From positions 793 through 64,792 of the IMG/VR virus record IMGVR_UViG_3300027817_000001: 64,000 nt of DNA; one strand, given 5' to 3'. The notes beneath the pieces were generated by a model. That model worked only from the letters and a program-made list of their open reading frames with translations, was not told where the DNA came from and made no database searches. Origin of the DNA: a virus. Taxonomy: Duplodnaviria; Caudoviricetes. Positions 20,305-29,013 of the stretch are shown piece after piece; the stretch's first letter is position 1, and the number at the start of each line of letters is the position of its first letter. The translations under genes and the position numbers were made by a program.

Positions 20305-23300
20305 GTGGATAAAGAACCGAGCCCGTTGGACGACATCGGCGACGTCGGACCGCCGATCGGCCAGGACACCAGCCAGAGCTTCGGACCAGGATCGGGCCCA
20401 ACCGTCCTGAACACGGTGACGGACAGCTTTGCGCCACAAGGCGGAGGAACCGGCGCCAGCGCGCTCGGCACGGCGCTGCAGGAAACCGGGCCGGCGCGGT
20501 TCGCCACACCGCTCGACGATATCGGCGAGATCGCGCCGGAAGAAGTGACGGTCAAGGGCGCGGTGACGCGCGGCGCGGTGCACGGCGCGGTGCCCGCAGC
20601 CGGCGCGATGGCTGGTGCTGGCGCAGGCGCTGAAGCGGGTGGCGCCGTGGGCGCGTTTCTCGGCCCGTGGGGCGCGCTTGCAGGCGGCGTGATTGGCGGC
20701 ATCGGTGGCGCGATCGGCGGCGGCTTTGCTGCCGACAAGGCACAGGACTACACGCTATCCAAGCTGCCGGATAGCTTTGTGGATGCGTTCGGCCAAGGCG
20801 AGAGGCAGCAGCGGCTCGACCAGCAGGAACGACCCGTTGCCTCGTTTGTCGGCGGCATGATTCCGTTCGCGCTGACCATGCAGCCGACCAAGTTGGCTTT
20901 TAGGGCCACGGGCTTGCCGGAAAATGCCACAACCATTCAAAAGCTGATGGCGAACCCAGTCACGGCCCGACTGTTCGGCGGCGGTGTGATGGGCGGGATG
21001 GAGCTGGGCCAAGAGGCGGCACAGGGCCAGGTCGACTGGCGCAAGGTCGGCATCGCGACCGGATTCGGCGTTGTGTTCAACAAGCCGAACGCGTTGGGCG
21101 AGGCAATCACAGAGATGGGCGCATCGCCGGCGCGGCGGATGCTCGGCCGGCCAGAACCGGCGGCGCGGCCGCCGACCATCGCACAGGCCGGCGACACCAA
21201 GATCATGGGCCCGGGCATCACCGAGGCGGTGTTCCAGGGCAGCCACGAGCAGGCGCCGGAAGCCGCGATGACGGCGCAGCAGACCGCGCGCGACGAGCAG
21301 GCGGCCCGCGGCGAGCACCCGGAGCCGAATCCGGCTGACATCGCCCGGCAGATGGAGCCGGAACTGTTCGCTCGCTATGACGATCTGGTGAGCCGTCGGG
21401 ATGCGTTTCGTAAGTGGATTGACGATTACAACCGACCGTCGCCCGAGGCCATAGCCGAGGTTGATGGCAGGGTTGCTGATCTGCAAAAGCAACTCGACGA
21501 GCATGTCGCGGAGCGCGGCGGATATGCGGCTGGGCCTGAGGCCCGGCGGCTGCGCGCGCAGATCAGGGAGACACAGAAAGAGCGCGACGAATTGGCGGGG
21601 CGGGCAGCAACGTTCTCGCGCGGCGAGGCGCAGGACACCGCAGACCTTGCTTTGGCCCGTAAGCATTTGATGGATACCGACTTCGAACTTAGGGACGTCC
21701 AGAAAGAGGTCGCGGCCGCACATCGGCGCGCCGCCGACGCCGCCGGCACCGAGACCGTCCCGGCCGAGCCGCACGCCACCATCGCCGACATGCTGGCAGA
21801 ACAGGAGAACGCACCCAATGCCCAAGCGCCAGAACAAGGAGCCGGAGCATCTGGCGTTCCAGCAGGCGGTGAAGCTGGGCCTGAAGCCGGAGCAGTGCCT
21901 GGAGCTGCTGGTGCTGTCGTTTCTGGCCCTCAACGTTCCATTGGCGATCAGCGCGCCTTCATCGCGGACGACGTCGCCCGACGATTGATCGCCGCGGGGC
22001 GTCCGGAGGACGAAGCTCGAGCGGCGGCTCAATTGGTCGCGTCGCGCTATGTCACGCGCGCCGGACGGTTCGAGGGCAAGCTTGGCTCGGCCGAGGAGCT
22101 TTATGCCAAGGAGAGCGCGGCTATCGCGGGCCCCGGCGGCAAGGCGCTCCCGCCGGCGTTTCCACCGCGCGAGGTGACCGAAGCGGCGGAGACCGCTGCT
22201 CGCGTGAAGGCCGCGACGCCAGCCGCTCAACCGGGCATTCTTGCCAACGATTTCGAGAGCGCTGACCGGATCAAAAACGAGTGGCGAAAGGCCACCCCAT
22301 TCACCGGATCGGTTGAGGATTTCATCGCCGCGTCGAAGCCCAACCAGGAATCGCTGGCCGCGGTCGGCAAGCAGCTGGCGGATGAACTCGGGCTGACGTT
22401 CAAAGATCCCGGCGTCAAGGCGGACGGGCCGGGCAAGGGACTGGATCGGCTGCAAAGCAAGGCAAAGCGGTTCGGCGCGATCGGCTCGGTGACCGACCAG
22501 GTGCGAGCCGGGTTCGACGTGAAGACGCCAGCGCAGGCAGACCAGATCGTGCAGAGGATGGGAGAGAAATTCCAGGTGACGGACGAGGGCTGGCAGATGA
22601 CGCCGGCCGGGTATTTCGACCGGAAAGTCTATGTCCGATTCCCGGACGGCATGATTGGCGAAGTCCAGATGTGGCCGCCCGGCATGCTTGCCACCAAGAA
22701 GGTTGGACACAAGCTGTATGAAGGCGCGCGCGAGCTGCCGCCGTGGCATCCGCTGATTCCGGAGTTCAACCGGACGCAAGCCGAGGTCTACGAGCCGGTG
22801 CGTGCCGCGCTTTCGGCCGAATGGAATGCGGTTTTGGGCAGGGGCGGCAACGAACCGAACCTCTTGGCGAATGCCCCCGCTGAGAGCACGGCGGCATTGG
22901 ATCCGACGTCGGCAGCGTTAACTTCTTCCCACGAGCCTTTGACCAGCGCCCATGCCTCCGAAGGAGTCCAGAAGGCCGGGAGCCCGTCCCAAGAACAGGC
23001 TTTGATGTCTGACATGTTTGGGATCTCCAACGAAAATGTAGGAGAACATGCGTCCCCCGTCAACGCCGCATTGACCGCTCGCGACAAAATCGACGAACTT
23101 TCTCCGGCCGAGCAGAAGACGCAGCTGCCGACATATACCGCAGCGGCCGAGCAATCGCCGCAGGGCCGCGACCAGCCGGCCGGCGTGTTCATGTTCGACC
23201 CCACCAAGCTTGAGGTCGACGCCAAGCGCTTCCAGTTCAAGACCGGCGGGGACGAATACGGCGTCACCGGCGCGTTGCGCAACGTCCAGAAATGGGATCC

Positions 23301-26300
23301 GGCCAAGGCGCAATCGATCATTGTGTGGGAGCAGGCGGACGGCAAGCTGTTCGTGGCCGATGGTCACCAGCGTTCCGGGCTCGCTCGCCGCCTGGTCGAA
23401 CAGGGCAAGGCGAAGGACGTCCAACTGCCGGGCGTGCTCTACCGCGAGAAGGATGGCATTTCCGCCGACGACATCCGCGCCATTGCGGCCGTGACAAACA
23501 TTGCCAACGGCTCGGGCAAGGCGATCGACGGCGCCAAGGTGCTGCGGGAGCGGCCGGACCTTCTCGACGAATCGCTGCCGCTGTCCGCCGGCAAGGGCAA
23601 GCAGGCCGCGGCGCTGGCGCGGCTCGGTGACGAAGCGTTTCGGATGGTGGTCAACGATGTGGTGCCGGAGCACTATGGTGCCGTAGTCGGCGACCTGCTG
23701 CCGAAAGATCCGGACCGCCAGGTGGCCGCGCTGAAGGCGATCGCGCGGTTCGAGCCGAAGAACGCGGACGAGGCCGCGGTGCTGACCCAGCGCGTGGCCC
23801 AGGCCGAACTGGCGAAGAAGGAGGAGGGCGCGCAAACCTCCATGTTCGGCGACCTTGAGACGCCAGAGTCGACCGCCGGCGAGGAGATGAAGATTGTTGG
23901 CCGGGCGATCGCCGACCTCAAGAAAGACAAGTCGCTGTTCGCGCGCGTGCTCGCAAATGCGGAGCGGATCGAAAAAACCGGCTCGACAATTGAGCGCGAG
24001 GCGGCGCAGAATGTCTCAAACGACGCTGAGGTTTTTGCCAAGACGCTAACATCAGAGGCCTATTCCTCGGGACCGGTGCGCACCGAGCTCGTGGCGGCCG
24101 CAAGGGACCTGAAAAATGGAAAATCATCCATCGGAGAAGCTACACAGCGAATACTCGCTGCCCTCCGGGAGCAGGCTGAGACGCATGGCGCTGATCGGAA
24201 TGGCGCTGTCGGAGCAGGGGCGAAAGAGCGAGAGCTCGCCCAAACCGACGTCGAAAGGGTCAAGGACCACGAAGGCTACCCAATCGACCGAGGCGAAATA
24301 AGCCACGATTTGCATGATGAGTGGGCGGACCTGATCCGCGATCTAAAGGAGGGCGGCGAAGACGTCCCGTCGTCCCCGGCGCTGCGCCTGGCGCTTAAGA
24401 AGTTCGATGATCTGATCAAGCAGAACGATTCGCGGCTGGTCATCCGGCGTGGCCAGATCGCCGACGTCATAGGCTCGCTCGAAAAAGCCAAGACCGACAT
24501 CGCCGAGAAATTCGAGACTGGCAGCGGCCGCGCCACGGCGAAAAGCCTGTCCGGCCGCGTGATCGAGGCCAAGATCGACGACGAGATTGTGGGGCTGCGC
24601 CGCACCGAGAAAGAGCTGCAGGACTTCTTTGGCGAGGAGGAGCCGGGCGACCTGTTCGCAGCCGAGCCCGGCGCCGAAGGCAAGCCGCAAGCCCTGATCC
24701 CGGGCGTCGCGCCGGTCACCGCGCGTGACCGCATCCAGGCGCTGGCCAACAAGCCGCTTGCTCCAAAGAAGGCGCAGAAGGCCGCCGATGAAGGGCTGTT
24801 CGGCTCGTCGAAGGATCAGAAGGAACTGTTTCAGCACAAAGCAGATCACGATGATGATCTGATTAGAATGCTTAGAGGCGCTCTGGAAACTGACGAATAC
24901 AGCTCAGTTGATAGTGCCGGAAGACGTGTTCCTGCATCTTCCCGCGAACTACTTGATCGCATGTCCAAAAAATACGGGGAAGACACTGATTTAGATCAGT
25001 GGTCAGAGAAAGATTACGACGCATATTTTGCTGCAGTCGACCGTGAAGCTGCAGTCAATAGCGAGACATTGGAAAATGCTGGAATAACGCAATCTTCAGC
25101 CAAAGCAGCCAAAGATGATGGCTTTGATACTTCACGGGAGTTTTGGCATGGCACGACGCACGGAATATTCACGGATTTTCGAGAGTCGACTGCTGAGAAC
25201 GACGTATTAGGGCCGGCCATCTATCTCGGATCAACAAAGGGGCTTTCAGATTTCTATGGTCCTGGCCGCGGCGGTGACCTGCTCGGCCCATTCCATGTCC
25301 GCGGGAATATCGTGAACGAGAACACGATGGTACCGAGGGATCCAGACAAGTATCCGGGGCAGATGGCGAAAGCGTCTCAGGTCATGGGGACGCTCAAGCT
25401 CGCTCTGGAAGACAAGCGAATGCGTGCACCATGGGGCAAGGACATGACACCAGCGCAATATGCGCGCGAGTTCTGGAAGCGGCGCGGCGTCGATGGCTAC
25501 GATTCCGGTTTTGAAGTCGCAATATACGACCCGAAGAACATCAGAGCTGGGTTTTCAATTGATGGCGGCACAATTCGCCCATCGACAGAACTCAATCAAG
25601 TCATGCGCGGCAAGATCAAGATCGGCTCCGGCCGTCCGCTGATCTCGCTGCTCAAAGATGCCAACGCCTCGACCTTCATCCATGAGACCGGCCATGAGTG
25701 GCTGGAGCAGATGGTGAAAGATGCCGCGCACCCCGACGTTTCGGATGTCGTGCGCAAGGACATGGCGTCCACGCTGGAATGGATGGGATTGGAAAAGCCA
25801 GAGGACCTGCAAGAAACTACCAAAGCTGGAAAATTGACTGCCAGAGCAACAAAGGCTCACGAGAAATTCGCCCGTGGATTCGAGCAATACATGCGCGAGG
25901 GCGTGGCTCCATCGAAAGAACTCGCCGGCGTATTTGCGCAATTCCGCAACTGGCTGCTCCAGATCTATCAGAGCCTGAAGGGTCTCGGATCAGAGATCAG
26001 CCCGGAGATCCGCGGCGTGTTCGACCGCATGCTGGAGATGGAACCGCAGCGCACCGTCATTGCGCCGGAGCGGCTGCAGCCCGATCTGCTGCACGACATC
26101 CACGAGGCCGACGCGGCACACACTCCGCCGCACGAGGCCGAGCCGGCGATGGACCGCATCATTGCGGAACGAGATCGCTACATCACAGAGCAACCCCCGG
26201 AGATTCAGCGTGAGCTCGAAGCCGCAGCCCAGAAAGTCCAAGCCGCAGAAGGACCAGCAGGAGAAGCCGCAGGCGCTCCCGGAGAAGCTTTCGCAAGCCC

Positions 26301-29013
26301 TGGCGGACCGGGACAAATGGGCGAAGGTGGCGGCGGACCCGGACCTGAGCCCGGCGGCGGCGGTGGTGGCGAGGAACATGCAGCGCAGCAGCCAAGCAGC
26401 GGCGGCGCTGGGGCAGAAGGCAACGCCGGACCAGACCCTCGATCCCAACTTGATCGTGACCCTGGGACTGCCCTCGCCCCCGGGCCAGCAGCCTCCGTTG
26501 GCGGGCGATCTTCCCCCTTCACCGACAAAGCCGGAAACATTCGGCTAGAGAACCTGACGAACAGCGCGGACGTCAGACAGGCCATCCACGACGCGGCCGA
26601 CGAGAGCAACGACTTCATCGGCGACCGTCGGGGCGTGGTCACCGACGGTCAGGTCTCCGATCTCGCCAACGACATCGGTCTGCCCGGCGCGATGGACATG
26701 GTGTCGAAATGGGTGAAGGGGCAGGCCTACAACGCCGAGCAGGTGGTGGTGCTCCGTAGGCTGCTGCGCTCCTCGGCGGTTGATCTGTCCGAGAAGATGA
26801 AGCAGGCCGCGATCGGCACTGACGAGGACGTGATGGCCTACGCCGAGGCTCGAGATCGGCATCAACTCATTCAGCGGACCGTCACAGGCGCCACGGCAGA
26901 GGCCGGCCGGACGCTGCGGGCATTCCGGAACATCGCTGGCGAGGAAGGTTCGGCGGCCAAGGCCATTGATGAGCTGGTGAAGATCGGCACCGGCAAGACG
27001 CTGTTTCAGCTCAAGGCTGAGGCGAAGATGGGCGCCAAGCTCGACACCCCGGAGAAGATTTCGCGGTTCATGCAAGATGCACAGAAACGCAACTTCGGCC
27101 GTGGCGTGCTGGAATATTTCGTCAACGCGCTGATCTCGGGACCTATTACCCACATCACCTACGGCGTCGGCAATGAGGTATCGTCGATCCTGCGCGCCGG
27201 CCCGGAGACCCTTGCGGCAGCGGCGATCGGCAAGGTCCGCCAGGCGCTGGGCCGCGAGGGCGAGGTGGTGCACGCCGGCGAGGCGCTGGCGCAGTACAAA
27301 GCACGCTACGGGACCATTCCGGCCTCAATCCAATCCGCTATGGAGGCGGCCAGGACCGGCATGACGACGCTGTTGCCCGGGGAAGAGATCGCACCGGGCC
27401 ATGGCGCCCTGACCCCGTTCGAAGGCGACGCCAGCCTTGCAACTGCAAAATCCATAACCAACGCGCCGGTGTCATGGAACGAGGCGATGGGGAGCGCGTT
27501 CGGCGCGGTACGCGGGATCAAGGATGCGTTCTGGGTCGGCGGCACGCTGAATGACAAGCCGATCGGGCTGGAATATTCGCCCCTTGGCCAGATCCCCGAC
27601 GTGCGGGTGAGTAGCGTCAACATCCCGATCGGCACCGCGATTCGGCTGCCCGGCCGGCTAGTCGCGGCCGAGCACAGCTTCTTCCGCACCGCAAACTATT
27701 CCATGGAACGCGCCGCGGAGGCCTACCGCGCTGCCACCGACGAAGGCCTGACCGGAACGGCGCGAGACCAGCGCATCGCCCAGATCGAACTCAACCCGAG
27801 CCAGGAGCAGATGGACCGCTGGATCACGGCTTCAAGTCACGCCACGCTGATGGGCCAGGGCGGCGCGTTCGTGCGCAAGCTCAGCGCGATGATGAACCAC
27901 GAATTCAATGTCCCGGGCATCGGCCCGACCCCGCTGCTGAAGTTCATGGACCCGTTCATCAAGATCTCGGGCAACATCATCGACCAGTCCCTGGTTCAGC
28001 GAACCCCGATCGGTTTGCTGTCGACCGAGCTGCGCGCCGACCTGATGGGGAAAAACGGGACCATTGCCCAGGACAAGGCGCAGGCCCGGATGCTGGTCGG
28101 AACTGGGCTGGCGTTGCTCTCGGGCAGCCTTGCGGCGCAGGGCTATGTGACCGGCTCGGGCCCGTCGGACCCCAAGGAAGCCGCGATGTGGCAGCTGGCC
28201 GGCAACCAGGCGCACAGCGTCAGGATCGGGGATTTCTGGTATCAGATCAACAAGCTTGGACCCTATGGCGTGCTGACCGGGATCGCGGCCGACCTCTACG
28301 AGGTGGCGCACGACGCTACGGATGGCGACATGCTGAAAGCTGCGATGCATTTGCAGCACGCGTTCACCCAGAACATCCTCGACGAATCGTTCATGAAAGG
28401 CCCATCTGACCTGATCAAGGCGGTGGACGATCCCGGCCGCTATGGTGAGAACTACATCAAGAGCTTCGCGTCATCGTTCACCCCGTTCTCGTCTGGCCTC
28501 TACCAGCTCAACCGGATGAACGATCCCTATCAGCGGGAAACCCGGTCCGTGGTCGACGCGATCAAGGCCAAGGTTCCGGGCCTGTCCGAAACACTGATGC
28601 CGCGGCGGGACGTGTGGGGCCAGCCGATGCCGAGCCGGGAGGGCGCCGGATACCTCACATCGATCTACGTGCAGAAGATGAACGCGGACCCGGTGAACCA
28701 AGCCATGCTCGATGCGCAGTTCTTCCCCGGGCAGGTCGAGAAGAAAATCCGGAACATCGAACTGACTCCCGAGGAATACGACGATTTTGCTCGGATTGCT
28801 GGAACTTTGACCAAGATCAACTTGGACAAACTTGTCGCATCACCGATGTGGCAAGATATGCCTTTGGGAGCCAAGCAAGACTGGATCAAGCTCGCGGTAG
28901 AGCAGAACCGTGAGATCGCGCGCGGCATCATCATGTACAAGCTCTACCCGCACATTTGGATCGACGCTCAAAAGCAAGCTGCCCAATGGAAGGTGGAGGG
29001 GAAGAAGCGATGA
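20305..29013 (+). CDS. giant polyvalent internal virion/DNA-ejection protein (RelA/SpoT-like, ParB-like, ART, zincin domains)
   Basis: 2902 aa; N-terminal glycine zipper; KGLDRLQSK..TDQVR..GYFD..EVQ..HKLYE (~22.4-22.8 kb); FVADGHQR (~23.35 kb); FWHGT..GPAIY..EVAIYDPKNIR (~25.1-25.55 kb); ASTFIHETGH (~25.68 kb); last position of ejection module. Confidence 0.88.
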   Translation: MDKEPSPLDDIGDVGPPIGQDTSQSFGPGSGPTVLNTVTDSFAPQGGGTGASALGTALQETGPARFATPLDDIGEIAPEEVTVKGAVTRGAVHGAVPAAGAMAGAGAGAEAGGAVGAFLGPWGALAGGVIGGIGGAIGGGFAADKAQDYTLSKLPDSFVDAFGQGERQQRLDQQERPVASFVGGMIPFALTMQPTKLAFRATGLPENATTIQKLMANPVTARLFGGGVMGGMELGQEAAQGQVDWRKVGIATGFGVVFNKPNALGEAITEMGASPARRMLGRPEPAARPPTIAQAGDTKIMGPGITEAVFQGSHEQAPEAAMTAQQTARDEQAARGEHPEPNPADIARQMEPELFARYDDLVSRRDAFRKWIDDYNRPSPEAIAEVDGRVADLQKQLDEHVAERGGYAAGPEARRLRAQIRETQKERDELAGRAATFSRGEAQDTADLALARKHLMDTDFELRDVQKEVAAAHRRAADAAGTETVPAEPHATIADMLAEQENAPNAQAPEQGAGASGVPAGGEAGPEAGAVPGAAGAVVSGPQRSIGDQRAFIADDVARRLIAAGRPEDEARAAAQLVASRYVTRAGRFEGKLGSAEELYAKESAAIAGPGGKALPPAFPPREVTEAAETAARVKAATPAAQPGILANDFESADRIKNEWRKATPFTGSVEDFIAASKPNQESLAAVGKQLADELGLTFKDPGVKADGPGKGLDRLQSKAKRFGAIGSVTDQVRAGFDVKTPAQADQIVQRMGEKFQVTDEGWQMTPAGYFDRKVYVRFPDGMIGEVQMWPPGMLATKKVGHKLYEGARELPPWHPLIPEFNRTQAEVYEPVRAALSAEWNAVLGRGGNEPNLLANAPAESTAALDPTSAALTSSHEPLTSAHASEGVQKAGSPSQEQALMSDMFGISNENVGEHASPVNAALTARDKIDELSPAEQKTQLPTYTAAAEQSPQGRDQPAGVFMFDPTKLEVDAKRFQFKTGGDEYGVTGALRNVQKWDPAKAQSIIVWEQADGKLFVADGHQRSGLARRLVEQGKAKDVQLPGVLYREKDGISADDIRAIAAVTNIANGSGKAIDGAKVLRERPDLLDESLPLSAGKGKQAAALARLGDEAFRMVVNDVVPEHYGAVVGDLLPKDPDRQVAALKAIARFEPKNADEAAVLTQRVAQAELAKKEEGAQTSMFGDLETPESTAGEEMKIVGRAIADLKKDKSLFARVLANAERIEKTGSTIEREAAQNVSNDAEVFAKTLTSEAYSSGPVRTELVAAARDLKNGKSSIGEATQRILAALREQAETHGADRNGAVGAGAKERELAQTDVERVKDHEGYPIDRGEISHDLHDEWADLIRDLKEGGEDVPSSPALRLALKKFDDLIKQNDSRLVIRRGQIADVIGSLEKAKTDIAEKFETGSGRATAKSLSGRVIEAKIDDEIVGLRRTEKELQDFFGEEEPGDLFAAEPGAEGKPQALIPGVAPVTARDRIQALANKPLAPKKAQKAADEGLFGSSKDQKELFQHKADHDDDLIRMLRGALETDEYSSVDSAGRRVPASSRELLDRMSKKYGEDTDLDQWSEKDYDAYFAAVDREAAVNSETLENAGITQSSAKAAKDDGFDTSREFWHGTTHGIFTDFRESTAENDVLGPAIYLGSTKGLSDFYGPGRGGDLLGPFHVRGNIVNENTMVPRDPDKYPGQMAKASQVMGTLKLALEDKRMRAPWGKDMTPAQYAREFWKRRGVDGYDSGFEVAIYDPKNIRAGFSIDGGTIRPSTELNQVMRGKIKIGSGRPLISLLKDANASTFIHETGHEWLEQMVKDAAHPDVSDVVRKDMASTLEWMGLEKPEDLQETTKAGKLTARATKAHEKFARGFEQYMREGVAPSKELAGVFAQFRNWLLQIYQSLKGLGSEISPEIRGVFDRMLEMEPQRTVIAPERLQPDLLHDIHEADAAHTPPHEAEPAMDRIIAERDRYITEQPPEIQRELEAAAQKVQAAEGPAGEAAGAPGEAFASPGGPGQMGEGGGGPGPEPGGGGGGEEHAAQQPSSGGAGAEGNAGPDPRSQLDRDPGTALAPGPAASVGGRSSPFTDKAGNIRLENLTNSADVRQAIHDAADESNDFIGDRRGVVTDGQVSDLANDIGLPGAMDMVSKWVKGQAYNAEQVVVLRRLLRSSAVDLSEKMKQAAIGTDEDVMAYAEARDRHQLIQRTVTGATAEAGRTLRAFRNIAGEEGSAAKAIDELVKIGTGKTLFQLKAEAKMGAKLDTPEKISRFMQDAQKRNFGRGVLEYFVNALISGPITHITYGVGNEVSSILRAGPETLAAAAIGKVRQALGREGEVVHAGEALAQYKARYGTIPASIQSAMEAARTGMTTLLPGEEIAPGHGALTPFEGDASLATAKSITNAPVSWNEAMGSAFGAVRGIKDAFWVGGTLNDKPIGLEYSPLGQIPDVRVSSVNIPIGTAIRLPGRLVAAEHSFFRTANYSMERAAEAYRAATDEGLTGTARDQRIAQIELNPSQEQMDRWITASSHATLMGQGGAFVRKLSAMMNHEFNVPGIGPTPLLKFMDPFIKISGNIIDQSLVQRTPIGLLSTELRADLMGKNGTIAQDKAQARMLVGTGLALLSGSLAAQGYVTGSGPSDPKEAAMWQLAGNQAHSVRIGDFWYQINKLGPYGVLTGIAADLYEVAHDATDGDMLKAAMHLQHAFTQNILDESFMKGPSDLIKAVDDPGRYGENYIKSFASSFTPFSSGLYQLNRMNDPYQRETRSVVDAIKAKVPGLSETLMPRRDVWGQPMPSREGAGYLTSIYVQKMNADPVNQAMLDAQFFPGQVEKKIRNIELTPEEYDDFARIAGTLTKINLDKLVASPMWQDMPLGAKQDWIKLAVEQNREIARGIIMYKLYPHIWIDAQKQAAQWKVEGKKR
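21818..21988 (+). CDS. nested +1-frame ORF (56 aa) inside giant gene
   Basis: AGGAG 21803-21807; MPKRQNKEPEHLAFQQAVKLGLKPEQCLELLVLSFLALN...; GC-ending codons in this frame while host frame turns A/T-ending. Confidence 0.6.
   Translation: MPKRQNKEPEHLAFQQAVKLGLKPEQCLELLVLSFLALNVPLAISAPSSRTTSPDD
22788..23015 (-). CDS. nested antisense ORF (75 aa), candidate antitoxin of RelA/SpoT-like domain
   Basis: MSDIKACSWDGLPAFWTPSEAWALVKGSWEEVNAADVGSNAAVLSAGAFAKRFGSLPPLP...; GGAG 9 nt upstream; promoter upstream. Confidence 0.7.
   Translation of the reverse strand: MSDIKACSWDGLPAFWTPSEAWALVKGSWEEVNAADVGSNAAVLSAGAFAKRFGSLPPLPKTAFHSAESAARTGS
23035..23063 (-). promoter_or_regulatory. sigma70-like promoter for nested antisense ORF
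   Basis: Minus strand TTGACG (23063-23058), 17 nt, TACATT (23040-23035). Confidence 0.7.
24116..24301 (+). CDS. nested +1-frame ORF (61 aa) inside giant gene
   Basis: AAGGGA 8 nt upstream; MENHPSEKLHSEYSLPSGSRLRRMALIGMALSEQ...; host frame locally A/T-ending. Confidence 0.45.
   Translation: MENHPSEKLHSEYSLPSGSRLRRMALIGMALSEQGRKSESSPKPTSKGSRTTKATQSTEAK
26210..26548 (+). CDS. nested +1-frame ORF (112 aa) inside giant gene
   Basis: GGAG 26199-26202 before GTG; ...EKLSQALADRDKWAKVAADPDLSPAAAVVARNMQRSSQAAAALG...; host frame here is a Gly/Pro/Glu low-complexity linker. Confidence 0.6.
   Translation: MSSKPQPRKSKPQKDQQEKPQALPEKLSQALADRDKWAKVAADPDLSPAAAVVARNMQRSSQAAAALGQKATPDQTLDPNLIVTLGLPSPPGQQPPLAGDLPPSPTKPETFG

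Follow-up and report, generated by a model that had tools for sequence, protein, structure and literature searches.

Genes embedded on the same strand within a larger gene are known in phages from the spanins, as in lambda Rz/Rz1 and T7 18.5/18.7. Here we describe a putative set of nested genes in a 64,000-nucleotide stretch of viral DNA (hereafter the window), which covers nearly all of the 64,792-bp virus record IMGVR_UViG_3300027817_000001, a record with direct terminal repeats. The gene that contains them, termed the host gene below, encodes a giant internal (ejected) virion protein, and the nested open reading frames (ORFs) comprise three in its +1 frame, L1, L2 and L3, and one on the opposite strand, CSW (Table 1). 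From comparisons of related loci we regard it as highly probable that the linker-coding stretches of this gene are true dual-coding regions. As in the spanins, a small gene lies wholly within a larger phage gene, in the +1 frame and with its own start codon and Shine-Dalgarno (SD)-like motif. Unlike the spanins, the host gene here specifies an ejected virion protein rather than an i-spanin, there are several nested genes, one of them antisense, and the host reading across the nested genes is a disordered spacer. On reading the nested products for a lipobox Cys or lipoprotein signal, none was seen: L2 and L3 have no Cys, and the one Cys of L1 has no lipobox context.

Overprinting in viruses, as reviewed in PMC8227390 and PMC6195259, involves two selected frames, one of which is of atypical composition and encodes low-complexity or disordered protein, together with fewer synonymous changes in the overlapped frame. 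The present case shares these features. The usual course is the origin of a new small accessory ORF within an old gene; here, in contrast, the small ORFs are typical of the genome and have in-frame homologues, and it is therefore the linker of the large gene that looks newer.

Two further described systems bear on the host gene itself. Like the polyvalent proteins (Iyer et al. 2017, PMC5512222), its product is a very large multi-module protein delivered with the DNA, but the enzymatic domains to be expected of such a protein were not detected in it by Pfam. The main text of that paper does not contain the terms "overlap", "linker" or "low-complexity" and has a single, unrelated passage on a "reading frame". 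With the T7 gp16-type ejection proteins the host protein shares a homologous C-terminal region of ~830 amino acids (aa) and its place in the gene order, behind genes of tail-tube-like type and one for an internal protein that carries a transglycosylase domain; it differs from them in having ~2070 extra N-terminal residues, and no nested genes are annotated in any of the matched GenBank phages. Our search of the published literature brought up no account of nested genes in the coding sequences of internal virion proteins or polyvalent proteins.

Start signals and codon usage of the nested frames

A preliminary description of the window had listed three +1 ORFs within the host gene, each preceded by an SD-like motif and each coinciding with a change in host-frame codon usage. 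All three ORFs and their motifs are present (Table 1). The third is open from 26060 to 26548, with an internal GTG at 26210 giving a product of 112 aa.

The codon shift is likewise present across all three ORFs. Over the whole host frame, the G+C content at codon positions 1/2/3 (GC1, GC2 and GC3) is 0.68/0.47/0.75, compared with 0.88/0.68/0.34 at 21805-21954 and 0.92/0.70/0.44 at 26230-26379. Host GC3 lies far below the value expected from the encoded amino acids in L1 (0.40 vs 0.75; z -6.0, with 0 of 5000 permutations as low) and L3 (0.51 vs 0.75; z -6.0, again 0/5000), as it does in L2 (0.55 vs 0.72; z -3.2, 7/5000). No such departure is seen at 20560-20760, a Gly/Ala-rich control from elsewhere in the host gene (0.75 vs 0.76 expected). 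Individual codons behave similarly: GCG serves for Ala at 1/12 positions in the L1 stretch and 1/20 in the L3 stretch, against 138/330 elsewhere, and CCG for Pro at 0/6 and 1/14, against 96/144 elsewhere. In the L1 and L3 stretches, the GC1/2/3 pattern of an ordinary gene sits in the +1 frame instead.

Openness of the +1 frame was ruled out as evidence for the small ORFs, because it is expected from the host amino acids: under 5000 synonymous permutations L1 stayed open in 3441, L2 in 1739 and L3 in 4150 (35-83%). Over the whole host gene there are 17 open +1 stretches of at least 50 codons, where 17.7 are expected. A simple codon log-odds plot of the frames was also set aside as sole evidence, being too noisy and favouring +1 at many sites along the gene. 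Tandem repeats were sought in the linkers and none was found there.

Table 1. Candidate nested genes and the features that enclose or adjoin them (window coordinates).
Feature	Coordinates	Strand	Description
L3	26199..26548	+	GGAG 26199-26202; ORF 26210..26548, GTG start, 112 aa; family matches and conservation as a nested locus
L2	24102..24301	+	AAGGGA 24102-24107; ORF 24116..24301, ATG start, 61 aa
CSW	23015..22788	-	75 aa; ATG at 23015, GGAG 9 nt upstream
L1	21803..21988	+	AGGAG 21803-21807; ORF 21818..21988, ATG start, 56 aa; weakest of the nested ORFs
Host gene	20305..29013	+	From the ORF listing, 2902 aa; giant internal (ejected) virion protein
gp16-like C-terminal domain of host protein	26518..29010	+	Directly 3' of L3; tblastn and phrog_6651

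Conservation of the small frames and synonymous variation

In L3 a basic N-terminal tail precedes a predicted helical hairpin (residues 23-71), which is followed by a Pro-rich tail; the gp16-like domain of the host protein begins within the last codons of L3. An exhaustive phmmer search with L3 against 1.84 billion representatives gave 81 matches at E<=1e-3, of which 11 were at <=1e-10. Most are ~100-125 aa long, with the N-terminus, core and C-terminus all conserved. Two matches, P0001 and P0003, carry junk-like N-terminal extensions similar to the upstream +1 reading of the window and therefore come from the same nested situation. L002 and the other loci first fetched were obtained with a 6-sequence L3 alignment, a 20-sequence alignment (A1) being too diverse; in L002, L003 and L005, L3 is nested in the +1 frame of giant ORFs. 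No L3 paralogue was found in the same genome, and tblastn of L3 against 50,697 GenBank phage records gave no match.

A sample of 37 loci was then intended to be independent of L3: 36 viral loci fetched by way of the gp16-like domain of the host protein, plus L005. An L3 hidden Markov model (HMM) matched 20 of the 37, and all 20 matches are in the +1 frame relative to the host ORF. In 19 of these L3 ends no more than ~50 nt from the start of the gp16-like domain, the exception being L026, where it lies ~840 nt upstream. The host ORFs of the L3 loci range from 1604 to >4164 codons, with 785 to >3300 codons upstream of L3. Host GC3 within the nested stretch is 0.36-0.63 in 20/20 loci, in each below the host GC1 there. 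A start codon stands at the N-terminus of the L3 family in 18 of the 20, and with the window included 19 of 21 copies have one (15 ATG and 4 GTG). An SD-like core is found 6-9 nt 5' of the start in 16/19, compared with 936 of 5700 random positions (16%); in most loci this core falls in conserved host Pro-Glu-(Val/Ile) codons. In these homologous genes the start, SD-like motif and open frame of L3 are conserved.

Substitution patterns point the same way. Pairwise comparison of 19 nested L3 ORFs gave differences of 0.483/0.478/0.445 at positions 1/2/3 of the host codons; for the 200 host codons that follow, which belong to a single-coding domain, the values were 0.383/0.320/0.620. Amino-acid identity over the L3 columns was 0.387 in the +1 frame vs 0.292 in the host frame. 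Host-synonymous differences inside and outside each ORF were compared by pairwise Fisher tests with the window. Against L002, L3 had 14/84 inside vs 294/640 outside (p=9e-8) and L2 had 6/35 against the same background (p=5e-4). Against L005, where 537/1147 outside positions differed, the counts were 17/59 for L3 (p=0.0045), 4/22 for L2 (p=0.006) and 10/33 for L1 (p=0.043); L3 against L003 gave 16/38 vs 376/675 (p=0.07). Host-synonymous variation is therefore reduced for L3 and L2, and borderline for L1. The host frame, for its part, was open in 19/19 loci, with a probability of only 0.00-0.42 per locus given only a +1 protein and local codon usage, and it follows that both readings are maintained.

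An unbiased scan of the whole gene (window, L005, L014) at p<1e-3 flagged only 24115-24234, 26215-26424 and 26695-26814, the first two of which correspond to L2 and L3. The third, a window of low synonymous divergence within the gp16-like domain (15/64, p=4e-4), contains no plus-strand ORF of at least 50 aa; its signal could be due to chance, an RNA element or an antisense feature.

The preliminary description had ranked the ORF at 24116, L2, as the weakest of the three, a ranking that the data reverse: L2 is second best, and L1, which has no database relatives, a marginal p value and no advantage in +1 identity, is weakest. In four of four loci (window, L002, L005, L014) L2 is kept at 59-61 aa with an ATG and an AAGGGA- or GAGGGA-type motif; its N-terminal ~32 aa are conserved and are followed by a basic Ser/Thr/Pro/Lys tail. 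L1 and its counterparts in L005 and L014, of 56-66 aa, have an ATG, an SD-like motif and a similarly placed stop in 3/3 loci. The L005 counterpart (L005 760-960) bears a zinc-ribbon-like CxxC..(11)..CxxC that is absent from the shorter L1 of the window, and tblastn of this L1-like ORF against the same GenBank phage records found no match.

An antisense layer had also been proposed, and of this only the short ORF CSW stands. It is 74-82 aa long with an ATG and an SD-like motif in 3/3 loci (window, L005, L014), and its stop is similarly placed in the three, the position being identical for the window and L014. A much longer antisense ORF, 20755..22779 (674 aa), was rejected as a gene. It extends over an interval bounded by rare TTA/CTA/TCA codons of the host frame (host aa 151 to 872), and because these fall elsewhere in relatives it is an artefact of codon bias and not conserved.

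The L3 and CSW frames also yield confident structure predictions. AlphaFold2 (AF2) modelled the L3 hairpin, residues 23-71, at a predicted local distance difference test score (pLDDT) of 82-95, between a disordered basic N-terminal tail and a disordered Pro-rich C-terminal tail. The CSW model, from a 5-sequence alignment, has a mean pLDDT of 83 and suggests a small beta-rich domain. Fold searches at E<=0.001 gave 0 matches for L3 in BFVD and PDB and 0 for CSW in PDB; the best matches of the two models, at E>=0.1, were helical hairpins of a generic kind and small SH3-like barrels. In the ESM Atlas, L3 had only scores <=0.84, to viral clusters without names, and CSW had no usable match. Pfam and PHROGs offered no family for the nested products. 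The small-gene frames look like the primary or older ones, because they carry the genome-typical codon pattern and because two of them, L3 and CSW, have confidently predicted folds; the linker reading would then be the overprint.

Several observations weigh against these conclusions. Most of the ~110-aa database matches to L3 are probably this same nested locus in related phages, so that the 81 matches do not represent 81 independent contexts, and the count was ascertained on intact ORFs. The C-terminal L3 motif overlaps a conserved host motif, and the retrieval of the 36 loci relied on two patterns, one of which itself covers part of the 3' end of L3. There was no L3-HMM match in 17 of the 37 loci. 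Eight of these were viewed: by eye, the +1 ORFs of L022, L023, L025 and L027 are shorter and carry a similar motif, the +1 frame is broken in L031, and nothing L3-like was seen in L033, L036 and L045. The pairwise tests are simple counts on related sequences rather than a codon model on a tree. The third codon positions of CSW coincide with those of the host frame, and since this geometry ties the conservation of the two strands together, selection on CSW cannot be assigned from substitutions (synonymous differences vs host, 21/46 against 537/1147 outside). For L1, a word-indexed search of similar-length proteins with the window and L005 versions found no database relatives, identity in the +1 frame is 0.39 vs 0.43 in the host frame, the conserved 3' half overlaps a conserved host segment, and p is only 0.043, the unbiased scan having raised no flag there.

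Weighing both sides, we consider overprinting very probable for L3, likely for L2 and somewhat favoured for CSW, and the case for L1 evenly balanced. That L1 alone reflects nothing beyond composition is a serious possibility, if not quite the one we would choose. The proposal that the linkers contain conserved alternative-frame genes missed by annotation is supported for L3 and L2: both have relatives, both keep their start, stop and SD-like motif, and in both the host frame shows fewer synonymous changes. It is weakest for L1.

Two loci show L3-type sequences in other arrangements. On the 1.4-kb contig L007, positions 259-855 hold a tandem double L3-type ORF of 199 codons that is not nested: an upstream gene ends just 5' of it and the host-like frame has a stop, while the host-like reading is still kept at the 3' end of the L3-type ORF. 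Downstream, on the other strand, is an AlpA-like protein, as read by eye. At L006 5632-6270 the host and L3 readings share one frame. Because L006 has several further frame breaks relative to its relatives, it was set aside as probably an indel-rich assembly, the alternative being a natural in-frame variant.

Stand-alone fusion proteins and alternative readings

A stand-alone gene on the viral contig L004, found also on L008, encodes a 355-aa protein that matches the window three times. Residues 1-44 match L2, with 66% identity over 32 aa from Met1 of the stand-alone protein onward; residues 52-119 match the antisense segment 23009..22806, that is, CSW (68% over 68 aa, E 1e-26); and residues 137-199 match the L3 core. 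The order in L004 and L008 is thus L2-N, CSW, L3-core and a hydrophobic, transmembrane-like C-terminal region. A 353-aa protein from a Bradyrhizobium genome, L009, has the order L2-N, L3-core, CSW and a similar hydrophobic C-terminal region, and matches the L2-HMM with E 1.5e-17; NCBI annotates a shorter version of its gene as a hypothetical protein. CSW matches a Bradyrhizobium genome at 68%, a tentative lead to the bacterial host of the phage. A further L3 match, P0051, joins two L3-cores to an Mrr_cat nuclease. The fusion is rare, with matches in 4 of 301 genomes of the Bradyrhizobium family, three of them weak; a plasmid search gave no match, nor did tblastn of the fusion against the 50,697 GenBank phage records.

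The fusion genes occur in a mobile or defence-island type of context. A serine resolvase lies beside the gene in both L004 and L009 (L004 9412-10206 and 3360-4727; L009 1281-1994 and 7874-9166). Further neighbours in L004 are an MT-A70 methylase and HEPN_AbiU2, and in L009 a tyrosine integrase.

The alternative that survives best is that the linkers were built from pieces of foreign small genes, inserted out of frame or inverted, whose codon signature is fading and which are not expressed. The modules do lie in different frames and strands of the giant gene yet in one frame in the stand-alone proteins, as fragment capture could readily produce; gene families remodelled out of frame have been reported from E. 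coli (PMC8788219); and the CxxC..CxxC segment present in the L005 counterpart of L1 is missing from L1 of the window. However, the host domains are at 36-60% identity, a divergence at which unselected sequence should be unrecognisable, and yet the L3 start is kept in 18/20 loci, the stop position in 19/20 and the SD-like core in 16/19. Host synonymous sites are, moreover, more conserved within L2 and L3 than outside. We therefore consider such fossils improbable.

A second alternative is a +1 shift of the ribosome in the linker, producing a truncated giant protein that ends in the L3 hairpin. In several loci the +1 frame is already open well 5' of the family start (window, 78 codons; L014, 153 codons), and in L006 the two readings are in one frame. 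Against this, homology begins exactly at a conserved ATG or GTG with an SD-like motif before it, the +1 reading upstream is junk-like and rich in Arg, Ser, Thr and Cys, and the further frame breaks of L006 mark it as a likely indel-rich assembly, which together make a trans-frame product very improbable. Least credible for the set as a whole is that low-complexity Gly/Ala/Pro/Glu sequence forbids +1 stops and acquired its A/T-ending codons by chance: openness is fully expected and the codon-model plot favours +1 in many places, but the Gly/Ala-rich stretch near the N-terminus has normal GC3, L3, L2 and CSW have relatives, some of them in-frame, L3 and CSW have confident predicted folds, and for L2 and L3 the idea is contradicted by relatives, synonymous tests and locus conservation alike.

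The host gene and the proposed role of the nested products

The host gene is assigned as a giant ejection protein in the gp16 position because of the families of its upstream genes and the match of its C-terminal ~830 aa. With tblastn, the C-terminal 820 aa matched 35 records of GenBank phages at 21-32% identity, mostly annotated "internal virion protein (D)", and the C-terminus matched phrog_6651 at E 1.3e-25. Upstream genes match the PHROG tail-protein families phrog_394 and phrog_376, which we take to be equivalents of the T7 tail-tubular proteins A and B, and another matches an internal virion protein that contains a transglycosylase domain.

The supported identity of the protein, as a T7-type internal virion protein, is limited to this C-terminal region. 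At E<=0.01 no Pfam family was found in the 2902-aa protein as a whole, and seven segments of it yielded sub-threshold noise only; three phmmer searches of PDB gave 0, 2 (E>=0.36) and 0 matches; and megablast of the gene against GenBank phages gave no match. Of the module names in the preliminary description, the HETGH (HExxH-type) motif is seen in the protein, and "RelA/SpoT" and "ParB-like" are without support in the Pfam and PDB sequence searches.

One further stretch of the gene departs from its usual composition. At 24775-25314 (host aa ~1491-1670) the G+C content is low, 0.46-0.55 overall, and host GC3 is 0.41 vs 0.73 expected (z -9.4), but a long +1 ORF is absent. The close relative L002 lacks any equivalent of host aa ~1511-1754. 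The stretch looks like a recently acquired foreign module.

If the dual-coding reading is correct, the host frame would read the linkers as Gly/Ala/Pro/Glu-rich spacers that need only stay open and flexible, and the same DNA would hold small genes that are complete in themselves, SD-like motif and start codon included. Ribosomes would presumably translate these by initiating internally on the late structural mRNA, giving L3, a predicted helical hairpin with a basic tail, together with L2, CSW and, less certainly, L1. An earlier suggestion assigned one small partner, an inhibitor, chaperone or immunity peptide, to each enzymatic module of the giant protein. Such an assignment is not supported: L3 stays directly ahead of the gp16-like domain although the modules upstream vary, which argues against a module-specific partner, and the fusion of L2-N, L3-core and CSW in one polypeptide speaks for a joint role rather than one per module. 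Judging from these fusions, we infer that the L2, CSW and L3 products may act together. That they are late-expressed partners serving the ejection protein or the virion interior is a tentative suggestion of less than even likelihood. More speculatively, and with a good deal less than even likelihood, giant ejection proteins of this phage clade may have been stitched together by reading through small genes that were there before and that live on, overlapped, in the linkers so formed, with the L2/CSW/L3 set working with the ejection protein and bacterial islands having captured that set as a membrane-anchored decoy or sensor against such phages.

If the small frames are translated, one phage gene would contain up to four unannotated genes, and L3 would stand for a family of at least 81 sequence clusters without a Pfam or PHROG model. 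Gene callers that forbid nested genes on the same strand would systematically overlook such genes in GC-rich phages. The locus would be a clean natural example in which the reading of the larger gene is the overprint, and it would connect phage ejection proteins with rare membrane proteins of bacterial defence-type islands. It would also mean that, in giant multi-module virion proteins, the stretches coding for "disordered linkers" can encode folded small proteins as well.

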